A stretch of DNA of 64,000 nucleotides from Candidatus Omnitrophota bacterium (GCA_903843285.1 CAIMPC010000039.1:44886-108885), one strand, 5' to 3'. Numbered from the stretch's first letter, positions 11,064-44,200 are shown. Program-made: numbers and translations. The notes: generated by a model from the letters alone, not told the origin.

Positions 11064-11157
11064 GGATTTTTTCGCACGCACCATAGTTAGGCATTTACTT
11101 TTGGGTGGTGCCTTCGCTTATCGCAAATTTGATTAGTCATACAAATTTGCCGTTGTG
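11064..11157 (+). repeat. repeat family B, copy 1 (short; immediately after stop codon)
   Basis: GATTTTTTCGCACGC...TTTACTTTTGGGTGGTGCCTTCGCTTATCGCAAATTTG...CAAATTTGCCGTTGT. Shares 30-40 nt blocks with the copies at 22741 and 28278. Confidence 0.65.
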
Positions 11158-11178
11158 ATCTACGAGAGGAGAGTCGAG

Positions 11179-11595
11179 ATGAAAAAGGTTGTCGCAATGT
11201 TTGCGTTATGTCTGGTGATGAGTGGCTGTGCGACGTCGGGAAATATATGGAAGGAGATCGCGGGCACTTCTACGCAAGAGATCGAAGAGACCAGGGTGGA
11301 TGCGGTCTCTAAGGTATTCGAATACGATTATAAGACCTGTTATTTTAATGTGGAGAAACTCTTAAATAAGATGCCAAAGATCTCCATCTATTCTAAAGAC
11401 AATAGCACGATAGCCGTCTATTTTATAAATCCGGACACCACGCCTGTGGGGCTTTTTTTTAAGGAGATAGATTCGACTCATACGCAAGTGGAGATATCAT
11501 CACCGAGTACCCCCGCAAAGGAATGGGTTGCTAAGAACATATTCACTGAGACGGTTCAGGAACCCCAGAAACTTATAACAAAGGGCGGTATTTAA
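11179..11595 (+). CDS. hypothetical lipoprotein
   Basis: MKKVVAMFALCLVMSGCATSG lipobox (LVMSGC). RBS GAGAGGAGAG upstream of the ATG at 11179. No recognisable domain. Confidence 0.6.
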   Translation: MKKVVAMFALCLVMSGCATSGNIWKEIAGTSTQEIEETRVDAVSKVFEYDYKTCYFNVEKLLNKMPKISIYSKDNSTIAVYFINPDTTPVGLFFKEIDSTHTQVEISSPSTPAKEWVAKNIFTETVQEPQKLITKGGI

Positions 11596-11599
11596 ATCT

Positions 11600-12637
11600 A
11601 TGCCGGTGGATACGATAAATTGGAAGAGCGGTAAGGTAAGATTCATAGACCAGACGCTGTTGCCCGGCCGCGTGAAGTTCGTTAGCTGTGATAACGTTCC
11701 GCGTTTGTGGAGGGCAATAAAGAGGCTTGAGATAAGAGGCGCCCCCGCCATAGGCATTGCAGGGGCTTTTGGGGTGGTGCTTAGCGCCAATAACTCAAGG
11801 GCAAAAAGTGCCGAGAGATTTCTGAGGGACCTCCGCAAGGATATTAAATATCTCGCTTCATCGAGGCCTACGGCCGTAAATCTATTCTGGGCGCTGGAGA
11901 GGATGGAAAAGATAGCTAATACCAATTTGCATAATGGCATAGGTAAGACAAAGAATCTTCTTCTTAAAGAGGCGTTGGCAGTATTAAGAGATGACAGAAA
12001 ACACTGCAGGGCGATGGCGCGTTACGGTGCAAGGCTGGTGCGTCACGGAGATACGATTTTGACTCACTGTAACGCCGGAGGCCTTGCTACCGCTGACTAC
12101 GGCACGGCCCTCGGAGTCTTATTTGAGTCTAATAGGCTTAACAAACATATAAAAGTCTACGTGGATGAGACCAGGCCTCTCCTTCAGGGTTCGCGCTTGA
12201 CAGCGTGGGAACTGCTCCACGAAGGTATGGATGCCACTCTTATATGCGATAATATGGCCGCGAGCCTCATGGCGAAGGGTAAGATAGATAAGATCTTCGT
12301 CGGAGCTGACCGTATAGCTTCTAATGGTGATACGGCAAATAAGATCGGCACGTATTCCCTGGCGGTTCTGGCAAAATATCATAAGGTGCCATTCTATGTA
12401 GTGGCGCCGGCCTCAACATTTGATCTTAATATAAAAACAGGCAGGGATATACCGATAGAAGAACGTGATGCAAGCGAAGTGCGTACCGTTATGGGTAGAG
12501 AGATCGCGCCAAGAAATATTAAGGTATATAATCCGGCGTTCGATGTAACCCCTGAAAAGCTCATAACCGCTATAATTACGGAACGAGGAATATTTAAAAG
12601 GCCTTACAGGAAGGCCTTAGAAATATTAAGAGGATAA
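11600..12637 (+). CDS. mtnA: S-methyl-5-thioribose-1-phosphate isomerase
   Basis: 345 aa in the eIF-2B alpha/beta/delta-like family: RGAPAIGIAGA and GADRIASNGDTANKIGTY. Confidence 0.8.
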   Translation: MPVDTINWKSGKVRFIDQTLLPGRVKFVSCDNVPRLWRAIKRLEIRGAPAIGIAGAFGVVLSANNSRAKSAERFLRDLRKDIKYLASSRPTAVNLFWALERMEKIANTNLHNGIGKTKNLLLKEALAVLRDDRKHCRAMARYGARLVRHGDTILTHCNAGGLATADYGTALGVLFESNRLNKHIKVYVDETRPLLQGSRLTAWELLHEGMDATLICDNMAASLMAKGKIDKIFVGADRIASNGDTANKIGTYSLAVLAKYHKVPFYVVAPASTFDLNIKTGRDIPIEERDASEVRTVMGREIAPRNIKVYNPAFDVTPEKLITAIITERGIFKRPYRKALEILRG

Positions 12638-12655
12638 GGCGCGGGAAGAAGCGGT

Positions 12656-13567
12656 ATGAAGATAAAAGATATCGGTGAGATAGGATTAATCGAGCGTATT
12701 TCCAGAGGAATTAAGCTCGATAAGTCCGTCATAAAAGGCATAGGCGACGACACGGCGGTTATCGCTTGGACGCCCGGGAAATATTTGTTATACACATGCG
12801 ATATGCTCGTCGAGGATGTTCATTTCAGGGCTGGGCCGGCTGTGCCGTTTCAGATCGGATGGAAGGCTATGGCACGGAACCTGAGCGATATAGCGGCGAT
12901 GGGAGGTATAGGCCGATATGCGGTAGTCTCGATCGCCTTAGACCCGGAAAAAAGCATATCATTTATCGATGAGATATACAGAGGGCTGAGGGCCGCCTGT
13001 AAACAATTTAAGGTAAATCTCGTAGGCGGAGATATATCGAAATCGAAGAAGACGGTTATCGACGTCTCCCTCATAGGCGAAGTGGAGAAGCGGAATCTCG
13101 TTACGCGCGCCGGGGCTAAAACAGGCGATGTCGTTCTTACGACAGGGTCATTTGGCGGATCTATAAAAAAGAAGCACTTGAATTTTACTCCGAGAGTTAA
13201 TGAAGCGCGGTTTCTCGTAAATGGTTATAAGATAAACTCGATGATAGATGTGACGGATGGCCTAATCATAGACCTAAATAGAATACTCAAATCAAGCAAT
13301 GTCGGAGCCAGGATATATAAAGGCTCTATCCCTGTTTCTGCCGACGCCGTTTCATTTAAACGGGCCGTTACCGACGGAGAGGACTTCGAACTCTTATTTA
13401 CAATGAGTCCGGACGAAGCCCGGCGGTTAATGAATTCTCGATCGACAAAGATGAAGGTTCCAATATCTGTAATAGGTGAGATTGCAGACAGAAGAGAAGG
13501 ATTTAAACTGATAACGAATAAGCTCGAGCACAGGATCTTAAATCCGAAAGGGTATTTACATTTTTAG
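12656..13567 (+). CDS. thiL: thiamine-monophosphate kinase
   Basis: AIR synthase-related fold: IGEIGLIERI, GIGDDTAV, DMLVEDVHF. Confidence 0.85.
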   Translation: MKIKDIGEIGLIERISRGIKLDKSVIKGIGDDTAVIAWTPGKYLLYTCDMLVEDVHFRAGPAVPFQIGWKAMARNLSDIAAMGGIGRYAVVSIALDPEKSISFIDEIYRGLRAACKQFKVNLVGGDISKSKKTVIDVSLIGEVEKRNLVTRAGAKTGDVVLTTGSFGGSIKKKHLNFTPRVNEARFLVNGYKINSMIDVTDGLIIDLNRILKSSNVGARIYKGSIPVSADAVSFKRAVTDGEDFELLFTMSPDEARRLMNSRSTKMKVPISVIGEIADRREGFKLITNKLEHRILNPKGYLHF

Positions 13568-13990
13568 ATGGTCAGGATATCGAGAAGCATAGAAGATACT
13601 ATCGGCATTGGAGAAGGGATTGCGAAGGCCCTGAAAGCCGGTGATGTAGTCGCGCTTATCGGCAATCTCGGATCCGGTAAAACTGTGCTTACGAAAGGAA
13701 TCGCTAAGGGGCTCGGTGTAAAGAATATCAACTATGTAAATAGCCCGACGTTCGTCATAATAAAAGAGTATATTGCCAGAGTGCCGCTTTATCACCTTGA
13801 TGTATACAGATTAAATGAACTCGCGACCCTTGATGCCGAGACTTATGAGGAATATTTTTATGGCGATGGAGTTACCGTTATAGAATGGGCCGATAAAATT
13901 CGTAAGATATTACCGAAGAAATATATTGAAATCAGATTGTCCGTGATCGGTGAGTGCGAAAGAAAAATAGAAATAAAAAAGAATAAATGA
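13568..13990 (+). CDS. tsaE: tRNA threonylcarbamoyladenosine biosynthesis protein TsaE
   Basis: P-loop LIGNLGSGKTVLTKGIAKGLG, SPTF and LYHLDVYRL motifs. Confidence 0.9.
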   Translation: MVRISRSIEDTIGIGEGIAKALKAGDVVALIGNLGSGKTVLTKGIAKGLGVKNINYVNSPTFVIIKEYIARVPLYHLDVYRLNELATLDAETYEEYFYGDGVTVIEWADKIRKILPKKYIEIRLSVIGECERKIEIKKNK

Positions 13991-14655
13991 AATTATTAGC
14001 GATAGATACATCGACCGACTTTTTAAGCCTCGCCGTTATGGATGGCAATGATGTGCTCGCACGAATACATAGAAGCGAGCCGAGAAGCCATTCCAGCCTT
14101 CTCGTTCCGATGATAGATGAAGTCCTGAAGATGTCAGGGGTAGAGCTTAAGGCCCTCGATGGATTCTGTCTCAGCATAGGACCGGGATCATTTACGGGAC
14201 TGCGTATCGGCGTGACGACTATAAAAGGCCTTGGGGTTATTACAAAAAAGCCAATCGTTGTCGTGCCCACGTTAGATGTGATCGCCCAGAACGCAAAACG
14301 ATTTCATGGTATAATATGTACGGTTCTGGATGCCAGGAAGGCCAAGGCGTACGCTTGCATTTATAGGTCCGATGGTAAGGGCTTGAAAAAATTGTCCAAG
14401 GTTCTGCTGGCTCCTGTGGCCGGCATAGTTAAGATATTAAGTTGTTATGATGAAGTGCTGTTTCTGGGAGATTTTGCCGATAAGATTGCGCCACAGCTGT
14501 CCGGCGCCAGGGTCATGGAGGGCGCGTGGCAGCCGAGGCCCGAAGTTGTGGGAATCCTCGGTCTCGAGTATTTTAAAAAGAAGAGATTTGTTAAGGCCGA
14601 AGATCTGGAGCCTTCATACATTTATTCAAAAGAATGTGACGTTACGGGAAGATGA
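13987..14655 (+). CDS. tsaB: tRNA threonylcarbamoyladenosine biosynthesis protein TsaB
   Basis: MKLLAIDTSTDFLSLAV...GPGSFTGLRIG, inactive Kae1/YeaZ homolog. Sits in a tsaE-tsaB pair. Confidence 0.9.
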   Translation: MKLLAIDTSTDFLSLAVMDGNDVLARIHRSEPRSHSSLLVPMIDEVLKMSGVELKALDGFCLSIGPGSFTGLRIGVTTIKGLGVITKKPIVVVPTLDVIAQNAKRFHGIICTVLDARKAKAYACIYRSDGKGLKKLSKVLLAPVAGIVKILSCYDEVLFLGDFADKIAPQLSGARVMEGAWQPRPEVVGILGLEYFKKKRFVKAEDLEPSYIYSKECDVTGR

Positions 14656-15806
14656 ACGAGCTATCAGTTGATACGAAGAATGACGCCACTCATACCCATC
14701 ACCGCCCAACCTGGGCAGATATAGACCTAAGGGCCATAGAGTATAACTTCAAGCAGGTCCGAAAGCTCATCGGTAAAGACGTTCATATTATGACTGTGGT
14801 GAAAGCCAATGCCTATGGCCATGGTACCATCGAGGTCTCCGAAGTCCTTGAGCGCTCGGGCGTTGACTATCTCGGCGTCGCTACCACCGATGAGGCGGTG
14901 CGAATTAGAGATCATAATATTAAGACTCCGATACTCGTCCTGGGTTCAGTGCTTCCGTCTGAGGTTGCGGTAGCCGTGGAGAGAGATATTACCCTCACCA
15001 TCTGTGACGATGAGCTTCTCGATGCCATCAGAAGCCGGACCGCGCACGGCGGAAGATTAAAGGCACATATTAAGATAGATACCGGCATGGGCCGCGTCGG
15101 GATATGGCACGAAGATGCCCTCGGTATTATTAAGAGGATATCGTCGGAAAAAGGTATTTTACTGGAAGGTATATATACGCATTTCTCGAGCGCCGGACGC
15201 GACGATTTCTTCACCGCTTATCAAATAGAGGCGTTCGAAAAGCTGTTATCGTCGATAGAAAAGAATTGGATAAAAATACCTCTTAAGCATGCCGCAAATT
15301 CCATCGCCACGGTAGACTTCCGCAGGTCCCATCTGAATCTGGTCCGCCCGGGCCTGATAATATATGGCATGTATCCTAAGCACACATTTCCTAAACTTAT
15401 TAAGCTTAAACCCGCCCTGGAATTGAAGACAAAAATAGTTTTTATAAAAGATACTCCTCCGGGGCGCTCGATAAGCTATGGCCGCACATTCATCACCCAA
15501 AAACACACTAAGATCGCGACTTTGCCAATAGGTTATGCCGATGGTTTCGGGAGAAAGCTCTCGAATAAGGCCGAGGTCCTGATAAGAGGCCAGCGCGCCA
15601 GAGTGGTGGGGAAGGTTACTATGGATCAGACAATGATAGATGTCGGCCATATTAAAGGCGTAAAGGTCAGCGACGAGGTAGTGCTGATAGGCAGACAGGG
15701 CAAAGAAGAGATCAGGACCGAAAACCTTGCCCGCATGGCAGATTCCATAGCCTACGAAGTCATCTGTGGTATATCAAACCGAGTTCCCCGAATTTATAAG
15801 AGATAA
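14652..15806 (+). CDS. alr: alanine racemase
   Basis: PLP site VVKANAYGHG; 384 aa; C-terminal beta domain. Confidence 0.9.
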   Translation: MNELSVDTKNDATHTHHRPTWADIDLRAIEYNFKQVRKLIGKDVHIMTVVKANAYGHGTIEVSEVLERSGVDYLGVATTDEAVRIRDHNIKTPILVLGSVLPSEVAVAVERDITLTICDDELLDAIRSRTAHGGRLKAHIKIDTGMGRVGIWHEDALGIIKRISSEKGILLEGIYTHFSSAGRDDFFTAYQIEAFEKLLSSIEKNWIKIPLKHAANSIATVDFRRSHLNLVRPGLIIYGMYPKHTFPKLIKLKPALELKTKIVFIKDTPPGRSISYGRTFITQKHTKIATLPIGYADGFGRKLSNKAEVLIRGQRARVVGKVTMDQTMIDVGHIKGVKVSDEVVLIGRQGKEEIRTENLARMADSIAYEVICGISNRVPRIYKR

Positions 15807-15858
15807 TCTTCGCTACAAACAGATAGTTCCGCAATTAGTCAACATGGAGGATGATACA

Positions 15859-17766
15859 GTGAAAAAATATAGTGCATTAATTTCGACGTTAGCCCTAATA
15901 TTTTTTTCCTTTAATGTGGTAGTGATTGACTTTGCGTTTGCGCTTGCCCCCAGAATTGCCTCACAGGATCCCGATGAGATAGAGCGTATATATGCCGGAG
16001 GCCAAAAACTTTTTGCCGCGATGAGAGGGCCCGGAAGCGAGTTACCCCTTAGGGCGTATAAGCCGGGCTGGCAACGTCCGGCGAAAGTTGAAGGTGGAGA
16101 GCCAGTGGTTCGCGGGCTCGATTTTGACGGAATCGATTATGCTTCCATTCCCGAAGGTTGGTACAAAAATCTGATACTTTCAAAGACTACAGATCTCGTG
16201 AGAGCATTTAAAATCTTTAAGGAAGATGAAGCGCGGCTTTCATATAATTATGGTGTGACGGAGGGCTACTGGGAATTAAAGAAAGGCGGCGATGGAGAGA
16301 TCCCTATATGTCGATGGGAGCGCCATAATGTTACCGGGCAATGGACGCTCGTGATTCATCCGGATTTTATCAGAATGTGGAAAGACATACGAGAGAATGA
16401 CGTTTGGTTTGAATATACTTTTCCGGATGGCAAGACGAGGACCGTTAGCCTGGCATGGGCAATATTCTATCGTGTGGCGAAGCACGAAATGACGGACTTG
16501 GATATGAGGCTACGTACAGCAAAAGGGAGCGGTTTGGGGCATATTACTAGCGGTGATGTATCCAGTGGACATGTATTTGTTAGTCAAGACGAAGAATCCG
16601 CTAACAGAATCGGTGGTAGATATGCACTGGTGAACGATGCGATATGGATGTGGTTTCTGGGCTCATACTGCTTTCCGGGGTACAGCGCTAAGTATAATTC
16701 CAATGTAGCAAGGGCCAGATATTTATGGTTTCTTGGAAGCTATAAAGGATATAACTCGAAGAATCTTAATGCCAAAGCAGTTGAGCTCGGGTTTAATAAG
16801 GAATTTCCAGATCTGATCAGTGATTCTGACGCGAGAGATAGAGCGATCGACATAGCCGTTGCGGTCAATCACAGGTTTTACAGCAAATATATCAGGACGG
16901 AAGCTACAGATAGAGAGAAGAAGATGCGTAATGAGCATGTCAAAAGCCATGGAAAATTTAGACATAGCGTCGGTGATACCATTTACGCGGCAGGAATGGG
17001 GTTTTCCACCGCAGAAGAAGGGATACTCGCAAGGATCGATACAAATATGGATGCGAGCTCTATCGGTGACTGCCCGGGAGTTACTGATTCCGAACCGTCA
17101 GTTATGGACAGGGTGCTATTCTATCCATTCTTTAAAGAGCTTAACACTCAAAATGTTGAAATATACATTCCGCAGGGTCTATTATTGACGCCTTCGGTGG
17201 AGAGCGCAGTAAAAAGCCTAAACGAACGCATTCGCCAAAGGCGTGATGGAGATGGTCTCCCCGAATGCGCCGGCGTTAAACCCATTGAGATTAAGAAGTA
17301 TAATGCCATGAATTTAGATAAGATGTTGGCTCGGAAAGATAGTGGTTCAAGAAGGATATTTGTTGCCGACCAATCGACTGTAGGAGATTTTAGAATGCTA
17401 CTGGATAGTGGCAGGCAGGATTTATTTAGGGGAAATCGATTGTTGACAGCCGATACGCCGCAAGTAAATGATGATACAGAAAATTCCGTGCATCAGGCGT
17501 GGCTGATTAAGGTTGCCATGCTATCATGCCTCCTAACTGAAGATAACTATATGACGGTTGGTACAGCCCTGGAACAAGAGATAAATGGTAAGATAGAGGA
17601 TAATGCTGAAGAATATATTTCAAGATTAGCTCAGGTTAGCAAGGAAAACTTGGATAATAGGGACGTTTCAAGCCGTGTGAACTATTTTCTCGGTAAAGTT
17701 GTGAGGCTAAGCCAATTGGTGGCTGAACAGCTTAAGATCCTTAAGGCGTTCTGGACCGCGGCGTAG
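15859..17766 (+). CDS. hypothetical secreted protein, no recognisable domain, internal WFLGSY repeats
   Basis: Long ORF with RBS GGAGGA 7 nt upstream of the GTG at 15859. N-terminus KKYSALISTLALIFFSFNVVVIDFAFALA-P looks like a signal peptide with an AxA site. I recognise no catalytic motif. Confidence 0.5.
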   Translation: MKKYSALISTLALIFFSFNVVVIDFAFALAPRIASQDPDEIERIYAGGQKLFAAMRGPGSELPLRAYKPGWQRPAKVEGGEPVVRGLDFDGIDYASIPEGWYKNLILSKTTDLVRAFKIFKEDEARLSYNYGVTEGYWELKKGGDGEIPICRWERHNVTGQWTLVIHPDFIRMWKDIRENDVWFEYTFPDGKTRTVSLAWAIFYRVAKHEMTDLDMRLRTAKGSGLGHITSGDVSSGHVFVSQDEESANRIGGRYALVNDAIWMWFLGSYCFPGYSAKYNSNVARARYLWFLGSYKGYNSKNLNAKAVELGFNKEFPDLISDSDARDRAIDIAVAVNHRFYSKYIRTEATDREKKMRNEHVKSHGKFRHSVGDTIYAAGMGFSTAEEGILARIDTNMDASSIGDCPGVTDSEPSVMDRVLFYPFFKELNTQNVEIYIPQGLLLTPSVESAVKSLNERIRQRRDGDGLPECAGVKPIEIKKYNAMNLDKMLARKDSGSRRIFVADQSTVGDFRMLLDSGRQDLFRGNRLLTADTPQVNDDTENSVHQAWLIKVAMLSCLLTEDNYMTVGTALEQEINGKIEDNAEEYISRLAQVSKENLDNRDVSSRVNYFLGKVVRLSQLVAEQLKILKAFWTAA

Positions 17767-17790
17767 CTGAATTACAGGTCAAATTTAGTA

Positions 17791-17827
17791 AAAATAGTCC
17801 CGAAAGTGCTCCCGGGGCTATTTTGTT
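17791..17827 (+). terminator. rho-independent terminator hairpin followed by a T-run
   Basis: AAAATAGTCCCG-aaagtgctc-CCGGGGCTATTTTGTT immediately after the orphan ORF. Confidence 0.55.
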
Positions 17828-17855
17828 GACAAAATATACGCTATTATAATATAAT
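17826..17855 (+). promoter_or_regulatory. sigma70-like promoter for ilvD-ilvBNC
   Basis: TTGACA (17826-31), 18-nt spacer, TATAAT (17850-55). GGAG RBS at 17880-83 before the ilvD ATG at 17890. Confidence 0.5.
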
Positions 17856-17889
17856 CAATCTCTTAATTACTATTAGAATGGAGAAATAT

Positions 17890-19545
17890 ATGCGCAGTGA
17901 TAAGATAAAAAAAGGTATTGAAAGAGCGGGTGCCAGGAGCCTATTATATGCTACAGGCATATCGAAAGAGGATATGGCCAAGCCGTTTATAGGTGTGGTG
18001 ACTTCGAGGACTGACCTTATTCCGGGCCATATTCATATGCCCAGATTAGAACGTTTCATAGAACGCGGGATTGCCTCCGGTGGCGGGGTGCCGTTCTTCT
18101 TCGGTGTTCCGGGTATTTGTGATGGTATCGCTATGGGACATACAGGGATGCGATATTCGCTCGCCTCACGTGAACTGATAGCCGATATGATAGAGTGCGT
18201 TATGAAGGCTCATTGTCTGGACGGACTGGTCTGCCTTACAAACTGCGATAAGATTACCCCCGGTATGTTAATGGCGGTAGGCCGATTGAATGTACCATCA
18301 ATAGTAGTGACTGCAGGGCCTATGATGAGCGGAAACTTAAAAGGCAGAAGACTATCGCTGGTTAAGGACACGTTCGAGGCTGTCGGAAGATGTAAAAAGG
18401 GCGAGATATCGCAGGATGAGCTGGCCGCTTTAGAGATGTGTGCATGCCCCGGCGCCGGAGCCTGTCAGGGGCTCTATACCGCGAACTCTATGGCTTGCGT
18501 CACCGAGGCCCTTGGGATGAGTGTTCCTGGATGCGCGACGGCACTTGCCGTCTCGGCGAAGAAAGATAGGATAGCTCAAGAGTCGGGTGAGAAGATCGTG
18601 GGTCTGGTGAGGCGCAATGTACTGCCGAGGACCATCTGTCGTCGTGAGGCTTTTGAGAATTCGATCAAGGTCGATATGGCGCTCGGCGGGTCCACGAACA
18701 CGGTTTTACATATAATTGCAGTGGCGAAGGAGTTTGGTATAGATATTCCTCTAGATGTATTTGATAAGATATCCAAGTCGACGCCGCACATTTCCAATAT
18801 ATTGCCCGGCGGTCAGCATTTTATGGAGGATCTGGAGTCGGCAGGTGGAATACCGGCTATAATAAAGCGCATGAAGAACCAATTAAATGATGTGATGACC
18901 GCCAGCGGGAAGTTGATAAGCCAGATAGCAAACGAGGCCCAGATACTTGACGACGATGTTATTCGCGATTATAAGGGCGCTTACCATAAAGAAGGCGGAA
19001 TAGCAGTATTGAAGGGTAATCTCGCTCCGGAAGGCGCTGTCATAAAACAGACGGCCGTTTCGGAAGCAATGATGAAGTTTAAAGGAAAGGCTCGCGTCTT
19101 CGATTCGGAAGAATTGGCGATGCAGGCCATAATGGCAGTAAAGATAAAAAAGGGTGATTGCGTGGTTATCCGCTATGAAGGACCGAAGGGTGGGCCGGGT
19201 ATGAGAGAGATGTTGTCTCCGACGGCGGCTATAGTCGGAATGGGTTTGGCTGACGATGTTGCGCTTATCACCGATGGAAGGTTTTCAGGCGGCACGCAGG
19301 GACCTTGTATAGGTCATATTTCACCCGAGGCCCAGGAGGGCGGGCCAATAGCGATAATCCAGGAAGGCGATGAGATAATCATCGATATCCCTGCGAGGAA
19401 GATAGAATTGAACGTTGCGGAATCGGAAATAAAGGCGCGTCTTGCGAAATGGAGAGCTCCGGAGCCCAAAGAGAAGGAAGGGTATCTGGCGCGTTATGCG
19501 AAGGCTGTTACTTCCGCATCCGAAGGAGCAGTGTTAAAGGCATGA
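17890..19545 (+). CDS. ilvD: dihydroxy-acid dehydratase
   Basis: [24 protein letters not shown]-terminus, [11 protein letters not shown], and the Fe-S cysteines. Confidence 0.95.
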
Positions 19546-21218
19546 AGATGACGGGGGCTGAGATACTGATAGAGTGCTTAAAACGCGAGAAAGTCGAAGT
19601 ATTGTTCGGCTATCCCGGAGGGCAGGTATTGCCTATATTTGACAAACTCTATGACGCGCCGATTAAGTTTATCCTCGTCCGACATGAACAGGCTGCTGCG
19701 CATGCGGCGGATGGTTATGCCCGCGCTACAGGCAAGACCGGGGTTTGCCTCGCAACCTCCGGACCGGGTGCAACTAACCTGGTTACGGGCATCGCTACGG
19801 CATATATGGATTCCATTCCGATGGTCGCGATAACCGGCCAGGTGAAATCATTCCTGATCGGTAATGATGCATTCCAGGAGGCAGATATAACAGGCATAAC
19901 CAGGCCGATTACCAAACATAATTATCTGGTCGAGGATATTAAAGATTTGGCGCGTATAATGAAAGAGGCGTTCCATATAGCCTCGACTGGACGCCCCGGG
20001 CCGGTACTGGTGGACATACCATCAGATATTCAGATGCAGCAATGCGAATTCGAGTATCCGGATAAAGTTTCGATACGCGGATATAATCCGACATATATCG
20101 GGCATGTAGGTCAGATAAAGCGAGCCGCTAAGGCCATATCTGAAGCGAAGAAGCCTATATTATATGTGGGCGGTGGCGCCATCATATCGAACGCCTCGGA
20201 AGAGGTGACAGAGCTGGCCATAAACAACGAGATACCGGTTACGATGACGCTTTTAGGACTAGGCGCATTTCCTTCCACCCACGAGCTATCACTGGGAATG
20301 CTCGGGATGCACGGAACAGCTTATGCGAATCACTCGATAATGGATTCGGATCTTATTATCTCTGTGGGCGCCAGATTCGATGACAGGGTTACGGGAAAAG
20401 TAGATGCATTTGCGCCGCATGCCAAGGTCATTCATATCGATATAGATCCCGCCAGCGTCTCTAAGAATGTCGAGGTTGATATACCGATAGTCGGTGACGC
20501 TAAACTTGTTTTAAAAGAACTGAACAAATTCGTGAAGAAACCTGATACAAAGGATTGGATTAAGACTGTAGCGGAGTGGAAAAACAAATACTCATTAAAA
20601 TATAAAGACGATAACACTCTTAGGCCCCAGTATATATTGGAGCAGATATATGAGGCGACCAAAGGTGATGCCATAATCTGTACCGAGGTAGGTCAAAATC
20701 AGATGTGGGCCGCTCAATTCTTCAAATTCACTAAACCCAGGACCATGCTATCGTCGGGTGGACTCGGGACTATGGGCTATGGTTTTCCCGCCGCGATAGG
20801 CGCTCAGCTGGGTAAGCCCGATGCGCACGTATTTGACATCGCAGGTGACGGATCTATTCAGATGAATATACAGGAATTGGCGACGTCTGTGGCAAATAAA
20901 CTGCCGATTAAGATCGTCATACTGAATAATTGCTATCTTGGCATGGTCAGACAGTGGCAGGAGCTATTTTATAATCACAGATATTCCTACACATGTTTAA
21001 ATGGCACCGAGCCGGACTTTGTTAAGCTTGCGGATGCTTACGGGGCGGTTGGTATGCTTATTACGAAGAAGGAAGATGTTCGTTCGGCAATAGATAAGGC
21101 CCTGGCGATAAATAATACGGTTATCATGGACTTCCGCATTGAGCGCGAGGAGAATGTCTATCCGATGGTGCCGGCAGGCGAGGCTATCAATAAGATGATC
21201 GGCGGAGGGCTAGCGTGA
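19542..21218 (+). CDS. ilvB: acetolactate synthase large subunit
   Basis: [13 protein letters not shown]..., TPP-binding [15 protein letters not shown] domain. ATGA overlap with the ilvD stop. Confidence 0.9.
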
Positions 21219-21730
21219 AGCACACGATATCTGTGTTGGTCGAGAACAAGTTTGGAGTGCTAGCCCGCATATCGGGACTATTCAGCGCACGAGGTTTCAA
21301 CATATCGAGCCTGGCTGTAGGAGAGACCGAGGATCCCACAGTTTCGCGTATGACGATAGTTGTTGAAGGCGACGATAAGACGCTGGAACAGATAAAGAAG
21401 CAGTCCAATAAACTCATAGACGTTATTAAGGTTATAGATTATAGAGAGGGAGAATTTATTGACAGAGAGCTTATTTTGATAAAGATCTCCTTCACCTCTA
21501 AGAATAAGAAAGATCTCCTCGCAGCGGTCGATGCCGCGGGCGGTAAAGTGGAATCATCCGGTGACAGATCGATCTGTGTGGAAGCCTCGGGGGATAGGGC
21601 AAAGATAAAGACGATATTGGAATTATTAAAACCTTTCGGTATCCTGGAAGTCGTTAGGACCGGCAGGATAGCGATAGATACGACTGATAAAGGATTAAAG
21701 GCTGACGGAAAACCTGAAGTTAACGAGTAG
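21215..21730 (+). CDS. ilvN: acetolactate synthase small (regulatory) subunit
   Basis: ACT domain ISVLVENKFGVLARISGLFSARGFNISSL. Confidence 0.9.
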   Translation: MKHTISVLVENKFGVLARISGLFSARGFNISSLAVGETEDPTVSRMTIVVEGDDKTLEQIKKQSNKLIDVIKVIDYREGEFIDRELILIKISFTSKNKKDLLAAVDAAGGKVESSGDRSICVEASGDRAKIKTILELLKPFGILEVVRTGRIAIDTTDKGLKADGKPEVNE

Positions 21731-21748
21731 AAAGGGGAGTAGAGAAAG

Positions 21749-22738
21749 ATGGCAAAGATTTACTATGATAAGGACGCGGATTTAGATATTTTAAAGGGTA
21801 AAAAGATTGCTGTTATAGGTTATGGCATACAGGGAAGAGGCCAAAGCTTAAATCTCAAAGAATCCGGGCTCGATGTTATAGTTAGCGAACTTCCCGGCAC
21901 AAAGAATTTTGAACAGGCGAAGATTGATGGATTCAACCCGATTCCTGCGGACGAAGCATCGAAGCAGGCAGACCTGGTCCAGATACTGACGGAAGACCAT
22001 GTGCAGGCGAAGGTTTATCAAGATCTCATCGCAAAGAATATGACGAAGGGAAAGACGCTCCTATTCTCCCATGGATTTAATATACGCTTTAAACAAATAA
22101 AGCCGAACAAGAAGATTGATGTCATCATGGTTGCTCCAAAGGGCCCAGGGGCATTATGCAGAAGGATGTACGAAGAGGGTAAGGGCGTACCTTGCCTTAT
22201 CGCGATATACCAGGATGCGACCGGCAATGCTAAGAAGACTGCGCTTGCGTATGCGAAAGGTATTGGCGGCACCAGAGCAGGAGTTATCGAGACGACATTT
22301 CAGGAGGAGACTGAGACCGACTTATTCGGCGAACAGGCTGTCCTGTGCGGCGGGACTAGCGAATTGATCTTAGCAGGGTTCGATACACTGATCGAGGCAG
22401 GGTATCAGCCGGAGATCGCGTATTTCGAAGTACTGCATGAGCTTAAGCTGATTACGGATCTGATTCAGGAGTACGGGATAAGCGGAATGAGACGTAGGGT
22501 ATCAAATACAGCGTGCTACGGTGATGTATCACGCGGCAAGCGCATCATTACCGAGAGAACGCGCAAAGAGATGAAGAAGATGTTGAGGGAGATAGTTTCC
22601 GGCAAATTTGCCCGAGAGTGGATAAAAGAGAACGAGCTGGGCAGGCCGAATTTTAACAAGATGCTGAAGGATGGAGATGCGCATCCCATAGAGAAAGTCG
22701 GACAGGATCTGCGTAAGATGATGCCCTGGATGGGGTAG
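21749..22738 (+). CDS. ilvC: ketol-acid reductoisomerase
   Basis: [17 protein letters not shown] Rossmann motif; class I KARI of 329 aa. Confidence 0.95.
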
Positions 22739-22740
22739 AG

Positions 22741-22950
22741 ATTTTTCGGCCGCTTAGCGGCTGGGTGGACACTCGGCGGCCACCTTCCGCTTGTCGCAAA
22801 TTTGCATCAGGCGTGCAAATTTGCTGTTGTAAAAATGCGATGGCCAATGAACCTGACCGGAGATATAGTTACAGAGCAGTTTCATTGTCCTGGTGTACCG
22901 CCAAATAGGTATCGCATTTTTACGAAAGTCGCTCCAGGTGGACCGTCAAG
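22741..22950 (+). repeat. repeat family B, copy 2 (starts 3 nt after the ilvC stop; ends just before the leuA RBS)
   Basis: ATTTTTCGGCCGC...CCTTCCGCTTGTCGCAAATTTGCATCAGGCGTGCAAATTTGCTGTTGTAAAAATGCGAT[loop]ATCGCATTTTTACGAAAGTCGCTCC. Has the same modules as 28278-28450. Confidence 0.65.
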
Positions 22951-23017
22951 TATCCCCGAATGGTACAATTTACAAGGTCAGGCGGGGACCCGAAGGATAT
23001 TTTTGCAGGAGAGAGTG

Positions 23018-24535
23018 ATGAATAACGAGAACAAGATAATAATATTCGACACAACGCTGAGGGATGGGGAACAGTGTCCCGGCGCCAGCCTGAATATTAA
23101 GGAGAAGCTCGAGATAGCTAAACAATTAGCCATTCTCGGTGTTGATATAATTGAGGCAGGTTTTCCGGTATCAAGCCCCGGTGATTTCGAATCCGTTAAG
23201 ACGGTTGCCAGGAACGTTAAAGGGCCCATAATATGCGGATTGGCCCGGGCGCTGGAGAAGGATATAGACGCATCTTATGGAGCTGTAAAATTCAGCGACA
23301 GGCCCAGGATACACATATTCTTAGCCACTTCGAAGATACATATGAAGTACAAGCTGAAGAAAGCGGAGGACGAAATCCTGAGACTGGCCGTTGCCGCTGT
23401 AAAATATGCAAAGTCTAAGGTATCGGATGTGGAGTTCTCTCCTGAAGATGCTTCCCGCACCGAGCCGGCGTTTCTCCATAAGGTTGTAGAGGCTGTTATA
23501 GCCGCCGGGGCAAGCACTGTAAATATACCGGATACCGTAGGCTACAGCACGCCTTTCGAGTTTGCAGACATCATCAGCGGTATTAAAAAGAATGTACCAA
23601 ATATCGACAAGTGCGTCATAAGCGTACATTGCCATAACGATCTGGGGCTTGGTGTATCTAATTCGCTGGCGGCCATACTGAATGGCGCGCGTCAGGTAGA
23701 ATGCACGATGAATGGTCTGGGCGAGAGGGCCGGGAATGCATCGCTGGAAGAGATAGTCATGGCTATAAAGACGAGAAATGACATCTTCAAAGGTATGTGT
23801 ACCGGAGTTAATACCAAAGAGATATATAAAAGTTCCAGGCTGGTTTCTAAATTGACCGGAATGCCGGTCCAACCTAATAAGGCCATAATAGGCGCGAATG
23901 CCTTTGCGCATGAATCCGGAATTCATCAGGATGGCGTGTTGAAGAAGCGTATAACCTATGAAATTATGAGGCCTGAGGACGTCGGCTTCGAGGAGTCAAA
24001 GATAGTATTAGGCAAGCATTCCGGAAGGCATGCTTTTGACTCCAGGCTGAAAAATTTAGGCCTTCACCTTAAGCAGTCGGACCTTAATAAAGCGTTTGAG
24101 AAATTCAAAGTGCTGGCCGATAAGAAGAAAGAGATCTTCGATGAAGACCTGGAAGCGATCATCGATGAAGAGATATCAAAGGTGCCCGAGAAGGTGCATC
24201 TGATCCATTTCCACACAGCATCCGGCGATCGAGTAAAGCCAACAGCGGTTCTCACAATTCGTTATAACGGCAAAGTATTGGATGCGAGCTCTACCGGTGA
24301 CGGCCCGGTCGATGCCTGTTATAAGGCTATCGACAAGATAACGGGTATTTCCGGTAAGCTTATGGACTACCAGATACGCTCTGTGACCAGAGGCAAAGAC
24401 GCTCTCGGCGAGGTATCGGTGAAGGTTGAGTCTAAGGGTAAGATTTTTTCAGGCAGAGGCGCGAGCACAGACATAATCGAGGCAAGCATAAAGGCGTATG
24501 TCAATGCTATCAATAAGCGCGCTATAGCCGGTTAA
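23018..24535 (+). CDS. leuA: 2-isopropylmalate synthase
   Basis: [27 protein letters not shown], LeuA dimerisation domain. RBS AGGAGAGAG. The longer ORF starting at 22802 is rejected because it reads through repeat B. Confidence 0.9.
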
Positions 24536-24635
24536 AATTTCTTAGTCTGAAAATTTAACTGTCCGCTCCGGTCGCATCCCGACGCCGTATATGGCGCGAA
24601 GATAGATCAGGCGGAATTTTTTTTGAAAGCATATT

Positions 24636-25505
24636 ATGACTAAGCAGATATATGGAATAGTCGGGCATCCTGTAAAGCACTCGTTATCACCGGCAATGCA
24701 GAATGCCGCTTTTAACCATCTTGAGATTAGTGCTGAATATAGATTATTTGAGGTATCAGATGCCGATTTCGATAAATTTCTCGACAAAATACGGGAAGAG
24801 AGGGATGTCGCAGGGCTTAACATTACGATCCCGCATAAGATAAGAGCTAAGGAATACCTGGAGCGTGTAGGTTCGCTCGACGAAAATGCCGCGAAGCTCG
24901 GAGCGGTAAATACGATAAAGATTGCGGTCGATGGACAGATGAAGGGATTTAATACGGATGGCCCGGGATTCTATAGGTCGCTTGTTCAGGATTTGAAGTT
25001 TGAGCCTGAGGGCAAGAATATATTCGTATTGGGTTCGGGCGGCGCCGCGAAGGCAGTAGCGATGTTTCTTGGCAGTAAGGCTGGCACGATATTCGTCTTT
25101 GATACGGATAGAGATAAGATGAGCGCGCTCAGAAACCATTATGCGAAATATTTCGATGTTATGAAGCTGAATCTGGTTTCAGGCGCCGGTCGCATAAAAG
25201 AGTCTTTGGATAATTGTGATCTGCTTATTAATGCGACTCCGGTGGGCATGAAGGATTCGGACGTATCGCCGATAGCTAAAAAATTTCTAAGGCCGGATCT
25301 GTGCGTCTACGATCTGGTCTACAACAGGCCCTCTACACAGCTGATAAGAGATGCTCGTGAGGCTGGAGCTTGCGCTTTAACAGGAGTAGGTATGTTGTTA
25401 TATCAAGGCGCTCTGGCATTCGAAATCTGGACCGGCAAGAGCGCGCCGATAGATATTATGAGACGAGCCCTCGAGGGATCCATTAAGGATAACTATGGTT
25501 TATAG
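24636..25505 (+). CDS. aroE: shikimate dehydrogenase
   Basis: IYGIVGHPVKHSLSPAMQNAAF, GSGGAAKA. Confidence 0.9.
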   Translation: MTKQIYGIVGHPVKHSLSPAMQNAAFNHLEISAEYRLFEVSDADFDKFLDKIREERDVAGLNITIPHKIRAKEYLERVGSLDENAAKLGAVNTIKIAVDGQMKGFNTDGPGFYRSLVQDLKFEPEGKNIFVLGSGGAAKAVAMFLGSKAGTIFVFDTDRDKMSALRNHYAKYFDVMKLNLVSGAGRIKESLDNCDLLINATPVGMKDSDVSPIAKKFLRPDLCVYDLVYNRPSTQLIRDAREAGACALTGVGMLLYQGALAFEIWTGKSAPIDIMRRALEGSIKDNYGL

Positions 25506-26283: not shown

Positions 26284-26313
26284 ACGAATGCGACAAAATC
26301 AGAAAGGGATAAT

Positions 26314-27956: not shown

Positions 27957-27966
27957 GAAGCGCTGT

Positions 27967-28450: not shown

Positions 28451-28596
28451 ATCTGACATATGTACGAAAAATCTCTAGGGTGGAGAGTAGCAGAGACTTA
28501 TATTGCTGATCTGTGCCGCAATCATGGCTTTATGAAGCGGCGAAATAAATTCATCGCCGCGAATAAAGGCATGAGTGCGATGATGCAAAGGTTATT

Positions 28597-29508: not shown

Positions 29509-29558
29509 CAGCCGTTTATAGCCTTAGCTTTCTCAAATAGATAAGATCGGAGAGCATA

Positions 29559-31574: not shown

Positions 31575-32447
31575 ATGCAGCGGTACATAGATAAGTTCAT
31601 CAACTATATGAAGGTTGAGAGGAATGCATCGGTCCATACCGTTACGAATTACCTGAAAGATCTCAGCGTATTTAAGGAATTTCTAGGCGATAAAGAGATC
31701 GAATCCATAGACCATCTTGCCCTGCGTCGTTTCCTGGCCGAGCTTCGCGCGAAGAATTACGCGAAGAGGACTGTCGCGCGGAAGCTCGCCTCTTTAAGAA
31801 GCTTCTTCAGGTTCATGTTTCGCGAAGGGCATATAAAGAAGAACCCGATAACTGCGGTCCTTACGCCCAAGCTCGATAAAAAGTTGCCGGTATTCTTAGA
31901 TATAGCTAAGATTAATAGGTTGCTCTCGGTGCCTTCGGATAAAGATTCCGCAGGATTGAGGGACAGGGCGCTATTGGAGACATTATATTCCACGGGTATC
32001 CGCGTAAGTGAGCTTGTGGGTCTGGATATGGATGATATAGATTTCATCAGCGGCGTTGTGAAGGTATTGGGTAAGGGTTCCAAGGAGAGAATTGTACCCA
32101 TAGGCGAGCCGGCTCTATCGGCCATAAGGAAGTCTATCGATGCCAGATGTGCGGATAAGGTTAAGGATAAAGATGCGGTATTCCTAAATAAATCGGGGGG
32201 CCGCCTTACCGATAGGAGCGTCAGGCGGGTCCTCGATAAACACATTAAGACGTGCTGTATAGCGGAAAAGATATCACCGCATAGCCTACGGCATTCGTTC
32301 GCGACGCATCTACTGGACCGCGGAGCGGATTTAAGGAGCGTACAGGAGCTTCTCGGCCATATGAACCTGTCGACTACACAGATATACACCCATGTCACGA
32401 TGGACAGGCTCAAGACGGTCTATGATAAGGCTCACCCGCGGGCGTAA
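31575..32447 (+). CDS. xerC: tyrosine recombinase XerC/XerD family
   Basis: SAM-like N domain and catalytic R..HSLRHSFATHLL..LGHMNLSTTQIYTHV. Confidence 0.85.
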   Translation: MQRYIDKFINYMKVERNASVHTVTNYLKDLSVFKEFLGDKEIESIDHLALRRFLAELRAKNYAKRTVARKLASLRSFFRFMFREGHIKKNPITAVLTPKLDKKLPVFLDIAKINRLLSVPSDKDSAGLRDRALLETLYSTGIRVSELVGLDMDDIDFISGVVKVLGKGSKERIVPIGEPALSAIRKSIDARCADKVKDKDAVFLNKSGGRLTDRSVRRVLDKHIKTCCIAEKISPHSLRHSFATHLLDRGADLRSVQELLGHMNLSTTQIYTHVTMDRLKTVYDKAHPRA

Positions 32448-32493
32448 ACGTGGGGAGATTTTCCGGCTATGCGAGTGCGATAGAAGTGCATGC

Positions 32494-32578
32494 GTCATTC
32501 TGAGGAGGGCTTTAGCCCGACGAAGAATCTAAAAGCAAGATCCTTCGCTTCGCCCTATCGGGCTTCGCTCAGGATGAC
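32494..32578 (+). repeat. repeat family A, 85-bp core-only copy (GTCATTCTGAGG...CTCAGGATGAC)
   Basis: GTCATTCTGAGGAGGGCTTTAGCCCGACGAAGAATCTAAAAGCAAGATCCTTCGCTTCGCCCTATCGGGCTTCGCTCAGGATGAC. Same length and terminal inverted repeats as the divergent copy at 45398-45482. Confidence 0.7.
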
Positions 32579-32619
32579 GATAGGTATCTAATCTGGTTAG
32601 ATACTATGCGAAGGGAAAG

Positions 32620-36851: not shown

Positions 36852-36852
36852 A

Positions 36853-36901
36853 GATGGAGATTTTTCGCCCATAGCGTAAGGGGCTATCTGTCGAGCATCG
36901 A
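36853..36901. repeat. hairpin GATTTTTCG-[31 nt]-CGAAAAATC right after the stop codon
   Basis: Shares the post-stop GATTTTTCG motif that opens repeat B copies at 11064, 22741 and 28278. Confidence 0.45.
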
Positions 36902-36928
36902 AAAATCTACTAGGGCTATGAGGATAAA

Positions 36929-40975: not shown

Positions 40976-41003
40976 CCTGATAATGGCATAACAGGTAGGG
41001 CAT

Positions 41004-42032: not shown

Positions 42033-42996
42033 TAGCGCGATAAAGCGCATGCTCGTGATAACTCTAAGTAACCTGGGTGACATCATACTCACTACCCCGG
42101 TAATCGCTACGCTAAAGCGAGAGTTTCCGATGGCAAGGATAGACGTCCTGGTTGGGCCTGCGGGCAGAGAAGTGTTCGAAAAAGACCATAATATATTTAA
42201 AATTATCATCTACGATAAACATATGCCGATCGCCGGCAAGCGTCGTCTGCAATTGAAGTTAAAAAAGCTCAAATATGATTTGGTCGTAGATCTTAAGAAT
42301 ACGCTATTCGGTCTATTAATAGGACCAAAATATAGGACCTCAACGATACAAAGCTTTCCGGTGGATGTTATTCACAGTATCGATAGACACCTTCACAGGT
42401 TGAAATCTCTCGGTATAATGAACGTTGAGAGGCAGTCATATATACATATAACTCCCGAAGACGAGGCGCAGATAGCGCACCTTCTAAAGATGCATGGGGT
42501 ACGCGATAGGTTTATAGTTATAAATGCCGGGGCCAAGAGCCATCTGAAACGCTGGACACCCGAAGGATTTGCGGCTGTAGCCGACAGACTTGCCGGTGAA
42601 TGCAAGGCAGATATAGTCTTCATTGGCGCCAAAGAGGACGAACCCATAGTTTCCGAAGTAATAAGGAAGATGAAGCATACGCCGCATAATTTCACAAATA
42701 AAACAAATGTTAGGCAGCTCGGCAACCTATTAAAACGAGCAAAGCTTCTTATAACAAATGACAGTGCTCCTCTGCATCTCGGCTGCGCTGTAGGCGCTAA
42801 AGTGCTCGCAATATTCGGTCCGACGAATCCTAAAAAATACGGCCCTATAGGTGAATTCGATCTGGTTGTTAATAAGAGATTATCCTGTTCGCCGTGCGAG
42901 ACAGCTGTCTGTAGATTTAACTACGAATGCATGTCACTGATCACGGCAGATGATGTCTTTGAATCAGCCAAGATAATGGTAGAGGGATATGAGTAA
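42019..42996 (+). CDS. GT9 heptosyltransferase paralog 2
   Basis: MLVITLSNLGDIILTTPVI, TNDSAPLHLG, FGPTNP. Confidence 0.75.
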   Translation: MMIDNSAIKRMLVITLSNLGDIILTTPVIATLKREFPMARIDVLVGPAGREVFEKDHNIFKIIIYDKHMPIAGKRRLQLKLKKLKYDLVVDLKNTLFGLLIGPKYRTSTIQSFPVDVIHSIDRHLHRLKSLGIMNVERQSYIHITPEDEAQIAHLLKMHGVRDRFIVINAGAKSHLKRWTPEGFAAVADRLAGECKADIVFIGAKEDEPIVSEVIRKMKHTPHNFTNKTNVRQLGNLLKRAKLLITNDSAPLHLGCAVGAKVLAIFGPTNPKKYGPIGEFDLVVNKRLSCSPCETAVCRFNYECMSLITADDVFESAKIMVEGYE

Positions 42997-44017
42997 AAAA
43001 ATTCTTATAGTAAGATTGGACAGGATGGGGGATGTGGTGCTCTCGACGCCGGTCATAAAGGCCATTAGGGGCGCCTATCCCGAAAGTCATATAGCCATGA
43101 TGGTTCGTACGTATTCGCGCGACATTGTTGAAGGCAATCCGTACCTGAGCGAAGTGATAATATACGATAAGAATGGCACTCACAAAGGCCTGATAGGAAA
43201 TTTAAGATTTATTCGGGAATTGAGAAATAAAAAGTTCGATACCGTGGTAGTGCTCCATCCGACTAACCGAACTCACTTAATACTTAGGCTCTCAGGGATT
43301 CCCGATAGGATTGGTTATGATAAGAAGCTAGGATTTCTATTGACCAAAAAGATACCGCATACAAAGCAGTTCGGAATGAAACACGAGATCGCTTACAACC
43401 TGGACGTTTTAAAATATATAGGCATTGAGCCTAAAGATAGTAAGTTATATATGCCGGTCAACAGTATCTCGGAACGCAAGATAACGAAATTATTAACGGC
43501 GAACGGTGTGAATAATTCAGATCTTCTCGTAGCTATAAATCCCGGAGCAAGCTGTGCATCTAAACGGTGGGGTATAGAAAAATTTGCGAAAGCAGCGAAT
43601 GGTCTGGTCGAGAAATACGGCGCTAAAATAATTATCATATCCGGAGATGTCGATAAGCATTTCGGTGACGGTCTGGCTTTATTGATTAAAAATAATTGCA
43701 TTAACCTGTCGGGAAAGACCAGCATAGCTGATACTGCTAGCGTGCTGAGACGTGTTAAACTGTTTATATCAAACGACTCAGGACCTGTTCATGTAAGCTG
43801 TGCTATAGGCACGCCGGTAATAGCGATATTTGGGCGTGGCGATCGGGGGTTATCGCCTAAGAGGTGGGGTCCCAGCGGGAGGAGCGATATCGTATTGCAT
43901 AAGGATGCCGGATGCGATATATGCTATGCGCATAACTGCCGAACCGGATTCAAATGTCTCGATTCTATCACGCCGCAGGAAGTCCTGGATGCAGCGGATC
44001 AGATATTGGGTAAGTAG
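42989..44017 (+). CDS. GT9 heptosyltransferase paralog 3
   Basis: ILIVRLDRMGDVVLSTPVI, SNDSGPVHVS, FGRGD. Confidence 0.75.
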   Translation: MSKKILIVRLDRMGDVVLSTPVIKAIRGAYPESHIAMMVRTYSRDIVEGNPYLSEVIIYDKNGTHKGLIGNLRFIRELRNKKFDTVVVLHPTNRTHLILRLSGIPDRIGYDKKLGFLLTKKIPHTKQFGMKHEIAYNLDVLKYIGIEPKDSKLYMPVNSISERKITKLLTANGVNNSDLLVAINPGASCASKRWGIEKFAKAANGLVEKYGAKIIIISGDVDKHFGDGLALLIKNNCINLSGKTSIADTASVLRRVKLFISNDSGPVHVSCAIGTPVIAIFGRGDRGLSPKRWGPSGRSDIVLHKDAGCDICYAHNCRTGFKCLDSITPQEVLDAADQILGK

Positions 44018-44046
44018 ATATTGAGACGGCAGTGAACGCCCATCAG

Positions 44047-44200
44047 GCGACGGAACTTCCTATGCCGCCTGAAACGACTGTCATAAAATTTCGATACCTA
44101 TTGGCGGTGCAGGTTTTACCATCGAAAGTTTATCACAGCGAGCGAGGAAGCCGATTCCGAGCGAGCGACAAGTGGAAGGCGGCATAGGAAGTTCCGTCGC
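44047..44200 (-). mobile_element. repeat family B, copy 4 in inverted orientation; 154 bp bounded by perfect 23-bp terminal inverted repeats GCGACGGAACTTCCTATGCCGCC / GGCGGCATAGGAAGTTCCGTCGC
   Basis: The reverse complement aligns with copy 3: CCTTCCACTTGTCGCTCGCTCGGAATCGGCTTCCTCGCTCGCTGTGATAAACTTTCGAT vs CCTTCGCTTGTCGTTCGCTCGGATTAGCCATCCTCGCTCACTGTTGATAAAATTTCGAT. The hairpin ATAAAATTTCGAT is also shared. Confidence 0.75.

Follow-up and report, generated by a model that had tools for sequence, protein, structure and literature searches.

Miniature inverted-repeat transposable elements (MITEs) and transcribed hairpin repeats of bacteria (reviewed in PMC3184786) are the described systems closest to family B, the repeat under study here. 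Family B was analyzed in a 64,000-nt stretch of DNA from a Candidatus Omnitrophota bacterium (GCA_903843285.1 CAIMPC010000039.1:44886-108885; hereafter "the window", in which coordinates are counted), and it probably constitutes a non-autonomous mobile DNA element, MITE- or REPIN-like, that is carried inside operon transcripts. Omnitrophota are widespread, uncultured, and often ultra-small, and they are known almost only from metagenome-assembled genomes (MAGs). The element spans 92-279 nt, with a complete mobile unit of about 200-270 bp of non-coding sequence. Its copies are dispersed, are present or absent at orthologous spacers, occur in both orientations, leave decay products, and share a conserved fold. 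It is a previously undescribed, phylum-wide repeat, ordinary in kind and unusual for a branched fold with strong comparative support; the literature searched contained no description of Omnitrophota repeats or structured RNAs. No named family accommodates family B cleanly.

Similarly to the Correia/NEMIS repeats of Neisseria, the ERIC/IRU repeats of enterobacteria, and the RUP/BOX repeats of pneumococci, family B falls within the range of 100-300 bp, is non-coding, and forms a long hairpin through terminal inverted repeats. Like them, it is dispersed in operon spacers in both orientations, includes truncated and nested copies, and is, as judged from its gene context, probably co-transcribed with its neighbors. 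Correia elements duplicate a TA target, whereas no target-site duplication was seen by eye around family B, and no parent insertion sequence (IS) with matching ends was found in the immediate flanks. Also in contrast to MITE-type repeats, its interior contains a three-way junction with invariant bases, compensated stems, and loop-loop covariation; unlike Correia, ERIC, and RUP/BOX, it is conserved across a whole candidate phylum. Short non-coding sequence with terminal inverted repeats and dispersed, polymorphic copies are thus shared with MITEs, and target-site duplication is not; because neither a target duplication nor, among the matches listed for the flanks, a parent IS was seen, family B is not a proven MITE.

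Repetitive extragenic palindromic (REP) elements are palindromes of 20-40 bp with a GTAG or CGTC tag (PMC3733652), and REP/REPIN elements are mobilized by RAYT transposases (PMC3116915, PMC3337134, PMC3733652). Family B resembles them as a non-autonomous palindromic repeat without target duplication, located just after genes, that persists as long-lived sequence populations and is presumably mobilized in trans by a single-copy enzyme recognizing a folded single strand. A composite present in L117 and L010 (L numbers denote sequences gathered for comparison) also parallels the REPIN, an inverted doublet moving as a unit. Nevertheless, family B is not a REPIN, since the consensus and the invariant columns of 23 copies show no GTAG or CGTC at the stem foot, no RAYT (Y1 transposase) gene was seen among the flanking open reading frames (ORFs) in the matches listed, and an asymmetric 160-nt core takes the place of the symmetric doublet.

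The ends of IS200/IS605-family elements and the attC sites of integrons are structure-specific single-stranded DNA substrates. They are recognized by fold rather than by stem sequence (the stems covary), a short internal pairing helps to define the site, and no target is duplicated, traits in which family B would be comparable. Each of these substrates is one short, imperfect hairpin (20-140 nt) beside a transposase gene or in a cassette array, in contrast to family B with its branched junction, no adjacent enzyme gene seen, and no cassette array. The covariation support for family B is at a level typical of accepted structured RNAs, as in curated Rfam families.

Five copies were located among the approximately 59 spacers of the window: three full copies, one 5' half, and one copy consisting of ends only. 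The scores below come from an nhmmer family profile, which is a sequence-only search, and from a covariance model of a 111-position core.

Copy 1, 11064-11155, + strand: truncated 5' half (profile positions 5-91, E 4e-9; covariance model 22 bits)
Copy 2, 22739-23005, + strand: full length, "long" type (profile E 2e-37; covariance model 102 bits)
Copy 3, 28277-28476, + strand: full length, "short" type (profile E 8e-55; covariance model 118 bits; fold z -3.6)
Copy 4, about 44018-44221, - strand: full length, "short" type (profile E 1e-42 at 44221-44037; covariance model 117 bits; fold z -6.9)
Copy 5, about 36859-36907 (36857-36909), + strand: both ends only, core absent entirely

All five sites had been proposed as related in a preliminary description made from the sequence alone, and they are real by several measures. 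An unbiased repeat search of the window returned D8 (35 nt, 91%; copies 1 and 3), I1 (53 nt, 85%; copies 3 and 4), I2 (copies 2 and 4), and I5, a perfect 24-bp inverted repeat (44047-44070/44177-44200). The motif GATTTTTCG occurs five times against 1.19 expected, each time within a family B spacer, and four of these sites form two opener/closer pairs (28277/28465 and 36859/36899). With E values from 4e-9 to 8e-55, the profile had four matches in the window and no more (28276-28479, 44221-44037 on the - strand, 22739-22979, and 11067-11155); a filter-free run of the covariance model recovered the same four sites and no others. The core is asymmetric, scoring 118 bits on its own strand versus 17 bits on the opposite one.

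Every full copy adopts a common fold, in which an outer stem and a long stem P1 close a three-way junction with the hairpins P2 and P3. The outer stem, (A)GATTTTTCGG / CCGAAAAATC(T), comprises 9-12 bp, with a T-run on the 5' side and an A-run on the 3' side. In P1, GGCG..ACTTTTG and an adjoining variable segment pair with a variable segment and CAAAAGT..CGCC. The single-stranded stretches of the junction (CCGCTTGYCG, CTGT, and AGTCGCT) are invariant, the P2 loop is UAGGC, and P3 is formed by UAAAAnnnCGAUG / AGGUAUCGnnnUUUUA. Each hairpin exists in two interchangeable versions: the P2 stem either has 4 bp or is long and of the GCAAATTTGC type, and P3 has a short loop or an extra branch. All four combinations are found.

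Comparative support for this fold is extensive. Among 23 aligned sequences and 47 pairs, 94.9% of the cells hold standard pairs, and changes on both sides are present in 28 of the 47 pairs. None of 500 shuffles attained any of the observed pairing measures, while the covariation score of 0.398 drops to 0.08 or less when the partners are slid by 1-3 columns. RNAalifold independently identified 36 pairs, 21 of them with compensation. The conserved structure that had been proposed for the family does form, and its 13-bp hairpin is real, with fully compensated differences between copies. Conserved coding capacity appears to be absent: alignment columns show paired covariation and no codon periodicity, and the stop positions in P3-loop ORFs of three copies, read by eye, differ from each other.

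The loops of P2 and P3 also covary. The combination of xGGC in the P2 loop with CGCC in the P3 loop is present in about 28 copies, and a rarer state, xGCC with CGGC, in three copies (copy 3, L029, and L100) from at least two lineages. The contact involves three bases and shows no violation in 31 copies, and one copy (L105) has a G-U (G-T) pair there; in the 23-sequence alignment, this loop-loop helix (helix 6) is 100% paired, with 20 GC and 3 CG. Such covariation suggests a tertiary contact between P2 and P3, which in copy 3 would correspond to the following bases:

Proposed loop-loop contact in copy 3, 28346-28396, + strand: P2 loop GCC (28346-28348) with P3 loop GGC (28394-28396)

The individual copies differ in completeness, and some boundaries in the preliminary description required revision. 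Copy 1 belongs to the family as claimed, but its opener is GGATTTTTTCG, with six T, and only the 5' half is left: it retains the 5' arm of P1, the junction CCTTCGCTTATCG, and the P2 hairpin GCAAATTTG/CAAATTTGC, stops at the junction after P2, and lacks P3 and the 3' half. The ribosome-binding site GAGAGGAGAG of the next gene, whose ATG is at 11179, directly abuts it. The ends of copies 2 and 3 lie at about 23005 and at 28476 rather than at 22950 and 28450. Copy 2 occupies the ilvC-leuA spacer and contains P1 (22762-22790/22931-22957), a palindromic P2 stem (22796-22824), and a P3 (22829-22923) with an additional branch in its loop; its outer stem AUUUUUCGG / CCGAAGGAU is closed by G-U pairs only, and its predicted fold reaches -98 kcal/mol (z -3.4). 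Copy 3, between the gene of a 103-aa protein and dprA, has an outer stem at 28277-28285/28465-28473, formed by the opener and the closing arm CGAAAAATC (28465-28473), followed by P1 (28299-28326/28423-28450, including ACTTTTGGGTG / CACCCAAAAGT at 28306-16/28434-44), P2 (28332-28360), and P3 (28366-28416). A separate 88-nt hairpin outside family B is located between copy 3 and dprA (28507-28594; -39.5 kcal/mol, z -4.5).

Copy 4 is antisense to the flanking heptosyltransferase and ychF genes. The perfect terminal repeat of 23 bp attributed to this copy is indeed perfect, but it has 24 bp and is the internal stem P1 (44047-44070/44177-44200), and the homology extends beyond it to 44037-44221. Its outer stem has decayed to GATATTGAGA, on the + strand immediately 3' of the TAG at 44015-17. 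The short copy reported after lpxL-ELM1 is present as copy 5, at 36859-36907, with an opener that begins 8 nt past the stop codon; it reads AGATTTTTCG ... CTATCTG-N8-CGAAAAATCT and keeps roughly 20 nt from the 5' end and 28 nt from the 3' end. In the MAG L097, the orthologous spacer carries a complete, oppositely oriented family B copy together with a second hairpin element. One further sequence, TTCGCGGCGATGA, was considered as part of family B and rejected, being present at one locus only.

Comparison of orthologous sites in seven relatives (L123-L129), whose ilvC genes are 86-93% identical to that of the window, provides evidence of insertion polymorphism. The order ilvD-ilvB-ilvN-ilvC-leuA-aroE-...-dprA-topA-xerC is conserved in them as far as the contigs extend. 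The ilvC-leuA spacer has 279 nt in the window versus 22, 19, 60, 31, 42, and 0 nt in L124-L129, and no family B copy is present there in any of the seven relatives. The spacer before dprA has 318 nt in the window versus 4-17 nt in relatives, again without a family B copy in the four relatives that reach the site; no copy was found within 10 kb of ilvC in L123-L125. The native stop codons keep their positions at the filled sites; the element therefore entered downstream of the stop codon, ahead of the following gene's ribosome-binding site. Just past the ilvC stop codon, independent hits are seen in two relatives: in L123 the 189-nt spacer (10991-11179) consists of an unrelated hairpin element, AAACTTTTTTT...AAAAAAGTT, and in L126 the 60-nt spacer (1638-1697) contains only a 15-bp perfect mini hairpin, AGATTTTTGGGGTGGC / GCCACCCCAAAAAT, starting with AGATTTTT.

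Approximately 35 further copies adjoin unrelated housekeeping genes in metagenome contigs and Candidatus Omnitrophota MAGs. The pattern of the P3 3' arm occurs at 94 places in metagenome contigs, about 18 of which have the whole architecture, and a similar pattern occurs at 26 places in one-genome-per-species contigs, of which about 11 are true copies. All of these true copies belong to Omnitrophota MAGs, except for two labeled Planctomycetia and one labeled only "bacterium". Among the sequences gathered for comparison, the covariance model yielded 36 matches over more than 25 independent contigs or MAGs; since some of them do not fit the search pattern, the conservation is not a mere artefact of the way in which copies were found. 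The window belongs to the JGI metagenome contig Ga0212088_10000884, and its ilvC is closest to Candidatus Omnitrophota proteins. As far as seen, family B is confined to this candidate phylum and is found throughout it. The pattern scan had no match in viral contigs, and a blastn search with copy 3 had none in plasmids and phages.

The window copies are 57-69% identical among themselves versus 76-85% to copies in other contigs, which excludes local duplication and indicates old subfamilies common to several lineages. The proposal of a dispersed family is thereby upheld. Chance similarity or a local segmental duplication in the contig has nothing left in its favor, given E values of 4e-9 to 8e-55, 36 matches over more than 25 contigs or MAGs, and closer copies abroad than at home, and it can practically be dismissed.

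Decay and rearrangement are evident both in the window and outside it. Remnants include the 5' half (copy 1), the ends-only copy 5, and an internal deletion in L103; a nested copy is present in L082, and another repeat is inserted at the junction in L098. Composites of about 620 nt, built of two inverted copies, occur in unrelated gene contexts in L117 (3313-3899) and L010 (1009-1546), with a short-type copy, about 95 nt, and an inverted long-type copy. The copies in these composites are about 95% identical, yet they differ in four fully compensated P2 pairs. In copy 4, the 5' arm has turned into the exact complement of the 3' arm.

The neighbors of the family are diverse and comprise DUF362-ferredoxin, ilvC/leuA, dprA, lpxL-ELM1, glycosyltransferases, ychF, ribH/nusB, recA, mreB, and others; a small membrane protein gene or a ferritin-like gene precedes some copies. 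The earlier gene labels DUF362-Fd, ilvC, leuA, and lpxL-ELM1 were confirmed by Pfam. The 46 flanking ORFs are housekeeping genes; among the matches listed (25 of 87 Pfam families), they include no transposase and no recurrent family, and only generic families were matched twice. No half-site pair enclosing an ORF was found in the profile search, and no tRNA or tmRNA gene was found near the copies.

The orientation relative to the neighboring genes is approximately 15 sense to 7 antisense. Copies 1-3 had been said to start 1-3 nt after a stop codon; the codons are indeed there (TGA 11061-63, TAG 22736-38, and TGA 28276-78), although that of copy 3 overlaps the opener. The suggested check of this distance across the family gave a consistent result: in 10 of the 13 sense copies with the opener after a long same-strand ORF, the distance from the ORF end to ATTTTT is -1 to +2 nt. 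Copy 4, which is antisense, likewise abuts the stop codon, but with the opposite end of the element. Copies 2 and 3 lie within a co-directional gene array, ilv-leu-aro-dprA-topA-xerC, which relatives pack with spacers of 4-22 nt and which begins, just upstream of ilvD, with a perfect sigma-70 promoter (TTGACA-18-TATAAT, 17826-17855). A terminator-like hairpin (17799-17816) precedes this promoter. A motif TGnTAAAAT overlaps the 5' arm of P3 in most copies, as judged by eye, with one weak promoter match at 28344-28372; as an internal promoter, it was rejected, being indistinguishable from stem conservation.

In the mechanism that we propose for a mobile DNA element, the folded junction would be recognized by an enzyme acting in trans, probably on single-stranded DNA, by analogy with IS200/IS605 ends, REPs, and attC sites. 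Arm-to-arm template switching at the hairpin might keep the stems perfect, which would account for the perfect 24-bp stem in copy 4 as well as for the near-identical copies that differ in four compensated pairs. Surviving insertions would be limited to the handful of bases separating a stop codon from the following ribosome-binding site, and the element would be transcribed as part of the operon mRNA. A target-site preference is inseparable from such survival bias, as tight operons tolerate insertions only in this interval. The layout of the 5' T-run and 3' A-run is unchanged by reverse complementing and never yields a hairpin-plus-U terminator; therefore, both orientations would be tolerable. 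The pairing of the element ends would potentially bring the stop codon and the next ribosome-binding site together again.

Several observations weigh against a mobile DNA element. No target-site duplication or conserved 5' tetranucleotide was seen by eye in the flanks of about 16 copies, and the filled and empty sites reveal no consistent direct repeat, with TA on both sides only sporadically (by eye). No autonomous partner or associated protein was found in the immediate flanks, among the matches listed. The window copies are old and diverged, with no near-identical pair that would indicate recent transposition in this genome. Survival bias by itself would not obviously predict so tight a placement, at -1 to +2 nt from the stop codon. 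Finally, the invariant junction, the loop-loop covariation, and the single G-U pair of L105 are no less compatible with a folded RNA than with a recognition site on DNA.

It is accordingly possible, though unlikely, that an element of mobile origin now serves as a functional folded RNA in operon transcripts, with a role such as transcript processing or stabilization, protein binding, or catalysis as a small ribozyme; its conservation would then be due to selection on the RNA fold. Junction bases that stay invariant while three stems vary with compensation would be expected of it, as would two states of P2-P3 loop covariation with one G-U intermediate and no violation; the outer stem of copy 2 closes only by G-U, the copies reside inside transcribed gene arrays, and the sense orientation is the commoner one. 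However, about one third of the copies are antisense to their neighbors, half copies and ends-only copies persist, and close relatives lack the element at the same sites. Nor do the stems show an overall excess of G-U over A-C mismatches (7 versus 5 outside the P3 apex in a hand tally of the pair table, a count uninformative on the strand), and hairpin template switching at the DNA level can yield compensated stems as well. The whole window has no match to Rfam 15 (4227 models) at the gathering threshold, including all known self-cleaving ribozymes, and a permissive search with copies 2 and 3 gave nothing above 21 bits versus gathering scores of 40-100, only microRNA and snoRNA hits at chance level. 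A hammerhead-type core was rejected, with no CUGANGA/GAAA seen by eye in the junction, in agreement with Rfam. Rather improbable is a related proposal, in which family B would be an undescribed, Omnitrophota-specific mobile structured RNA with a compact tertiary fold and its own putative activity, the DNA copies being its footprint; this activity may be self-cleavage that processes operon transcripts, or the RNA may be an intermediate for spreading.

The preliminary description had further regarded copy 2 as a possible leader of leuA, and the hairpins as possible terminators. Occupation of the whole ilvC-leuA spacer and the stability of the copy 2 fold (-98 kcal/mol, z -3.4) could be taken as signs of a cis-regulatory leuA leader or attenuator, or else of an intrinsic terminator or an insulator between genes. 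Yet family B is absent from this spacer in all seven relatives that share the gene order, and the same element follows DUF362, small membrane protein, ribH, ferritin-like, and other unrelated genes. No T-run was found after a family B stem, a terminator scan of 10500-30000 gave 16 sites versus 15.4 expected, none of which closes a copy, and a terminator would leave the downstream genes of the array without a promoter. This reading is very unlikely and, as far as sequence can show, is refuted by the empty orthologous sites. Site-specific recombinase sites, integron attC- or Xer-like, that mark cassette boundaries are equally hard to credit: each copy is an imperfect palindrome, conserved at its ends and variable in the middle, directly after a stop codon, and a tyrosine recombinase gene, the only one, lies at 31575-32447, but this gene is xerC, found in synteny after topA in all relatives. 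What separates the copies is not cassettes but core housekeeping genes, whose order is conserved; the copies occur in both orientations and in only five of the approximately 59 spacers; RYYYAAC/GTTRRRY ends are absent, and no co-oriented array beside an integron integrase was seen in the 36 matches.

As a phylum-wide mobile element that inserts into the narrow gap separating a stop codon from the following ribosome-binding site, family B illustrates how a very compact genome tolerates mobile DNA. It can be used as a marker for typing strains and lineages and can account for assembly breaks, and long operon spacers in Omnitrophota should not be taken as regulatory leaders. Strong comparative support for the fold makes it testable whether the element is single-stranded DNA recognized by a transposase or an acting RNA.

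Family B is accompanied by other hairpin repeats in Omnitrophota. Some have a AATTTTTCG...CGAAAAATT outer stem with different cores (L097 3944-4140 and the flanks of L047, L088, L010, and L052); one of these repeats has a ATGTGATGTGGCGAYGTGGTGAGC core, and another opens with GATTTTTACGGGTG. The second element of L097 has the same outer stem as family B and another core. Common ends with differing cores suggest that such hairpin repeats form a superfamily. Openers of the same kind also follow stop codons elsewhere in the window, as in the mini hairpin TAA-AATTTC..GAAAATTT after leuA (24539-24565) and in GAGATTTTCCGGC after xerC (32458-32470), ahead of a family A-like element.

Several other spacers of the window are filled by family A, another long-hairpin repeat, whose ends resemble ACTGTTGCGAAAT...ATTTCGCAACAGT and whose core reads GTCATTCTGAGGGAGGCC...CCGAAGAATCT:

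Family A, 3753-3929, 7298-7431, 32480-32580, 51305-51450, 52512-52657, and 62909-63054: copies from the repeat search and spacer reading
Family A-like sequence, 45400-45500: seen in the spacer sequence, outside the copy list of the repeat search

The copy at 3753-3929 (GTCATTCTGAGG...TTCAGAATGAC) lies in frame within holB (DNA polymerase III delta', ORF 3529-4746), where an insert of about 72 residues, free of stop codons, interrupts the Pfam DNA_pol3_delta2 match. This in-frame copy resembles the in-frame palindromic elements of Rickettsia.

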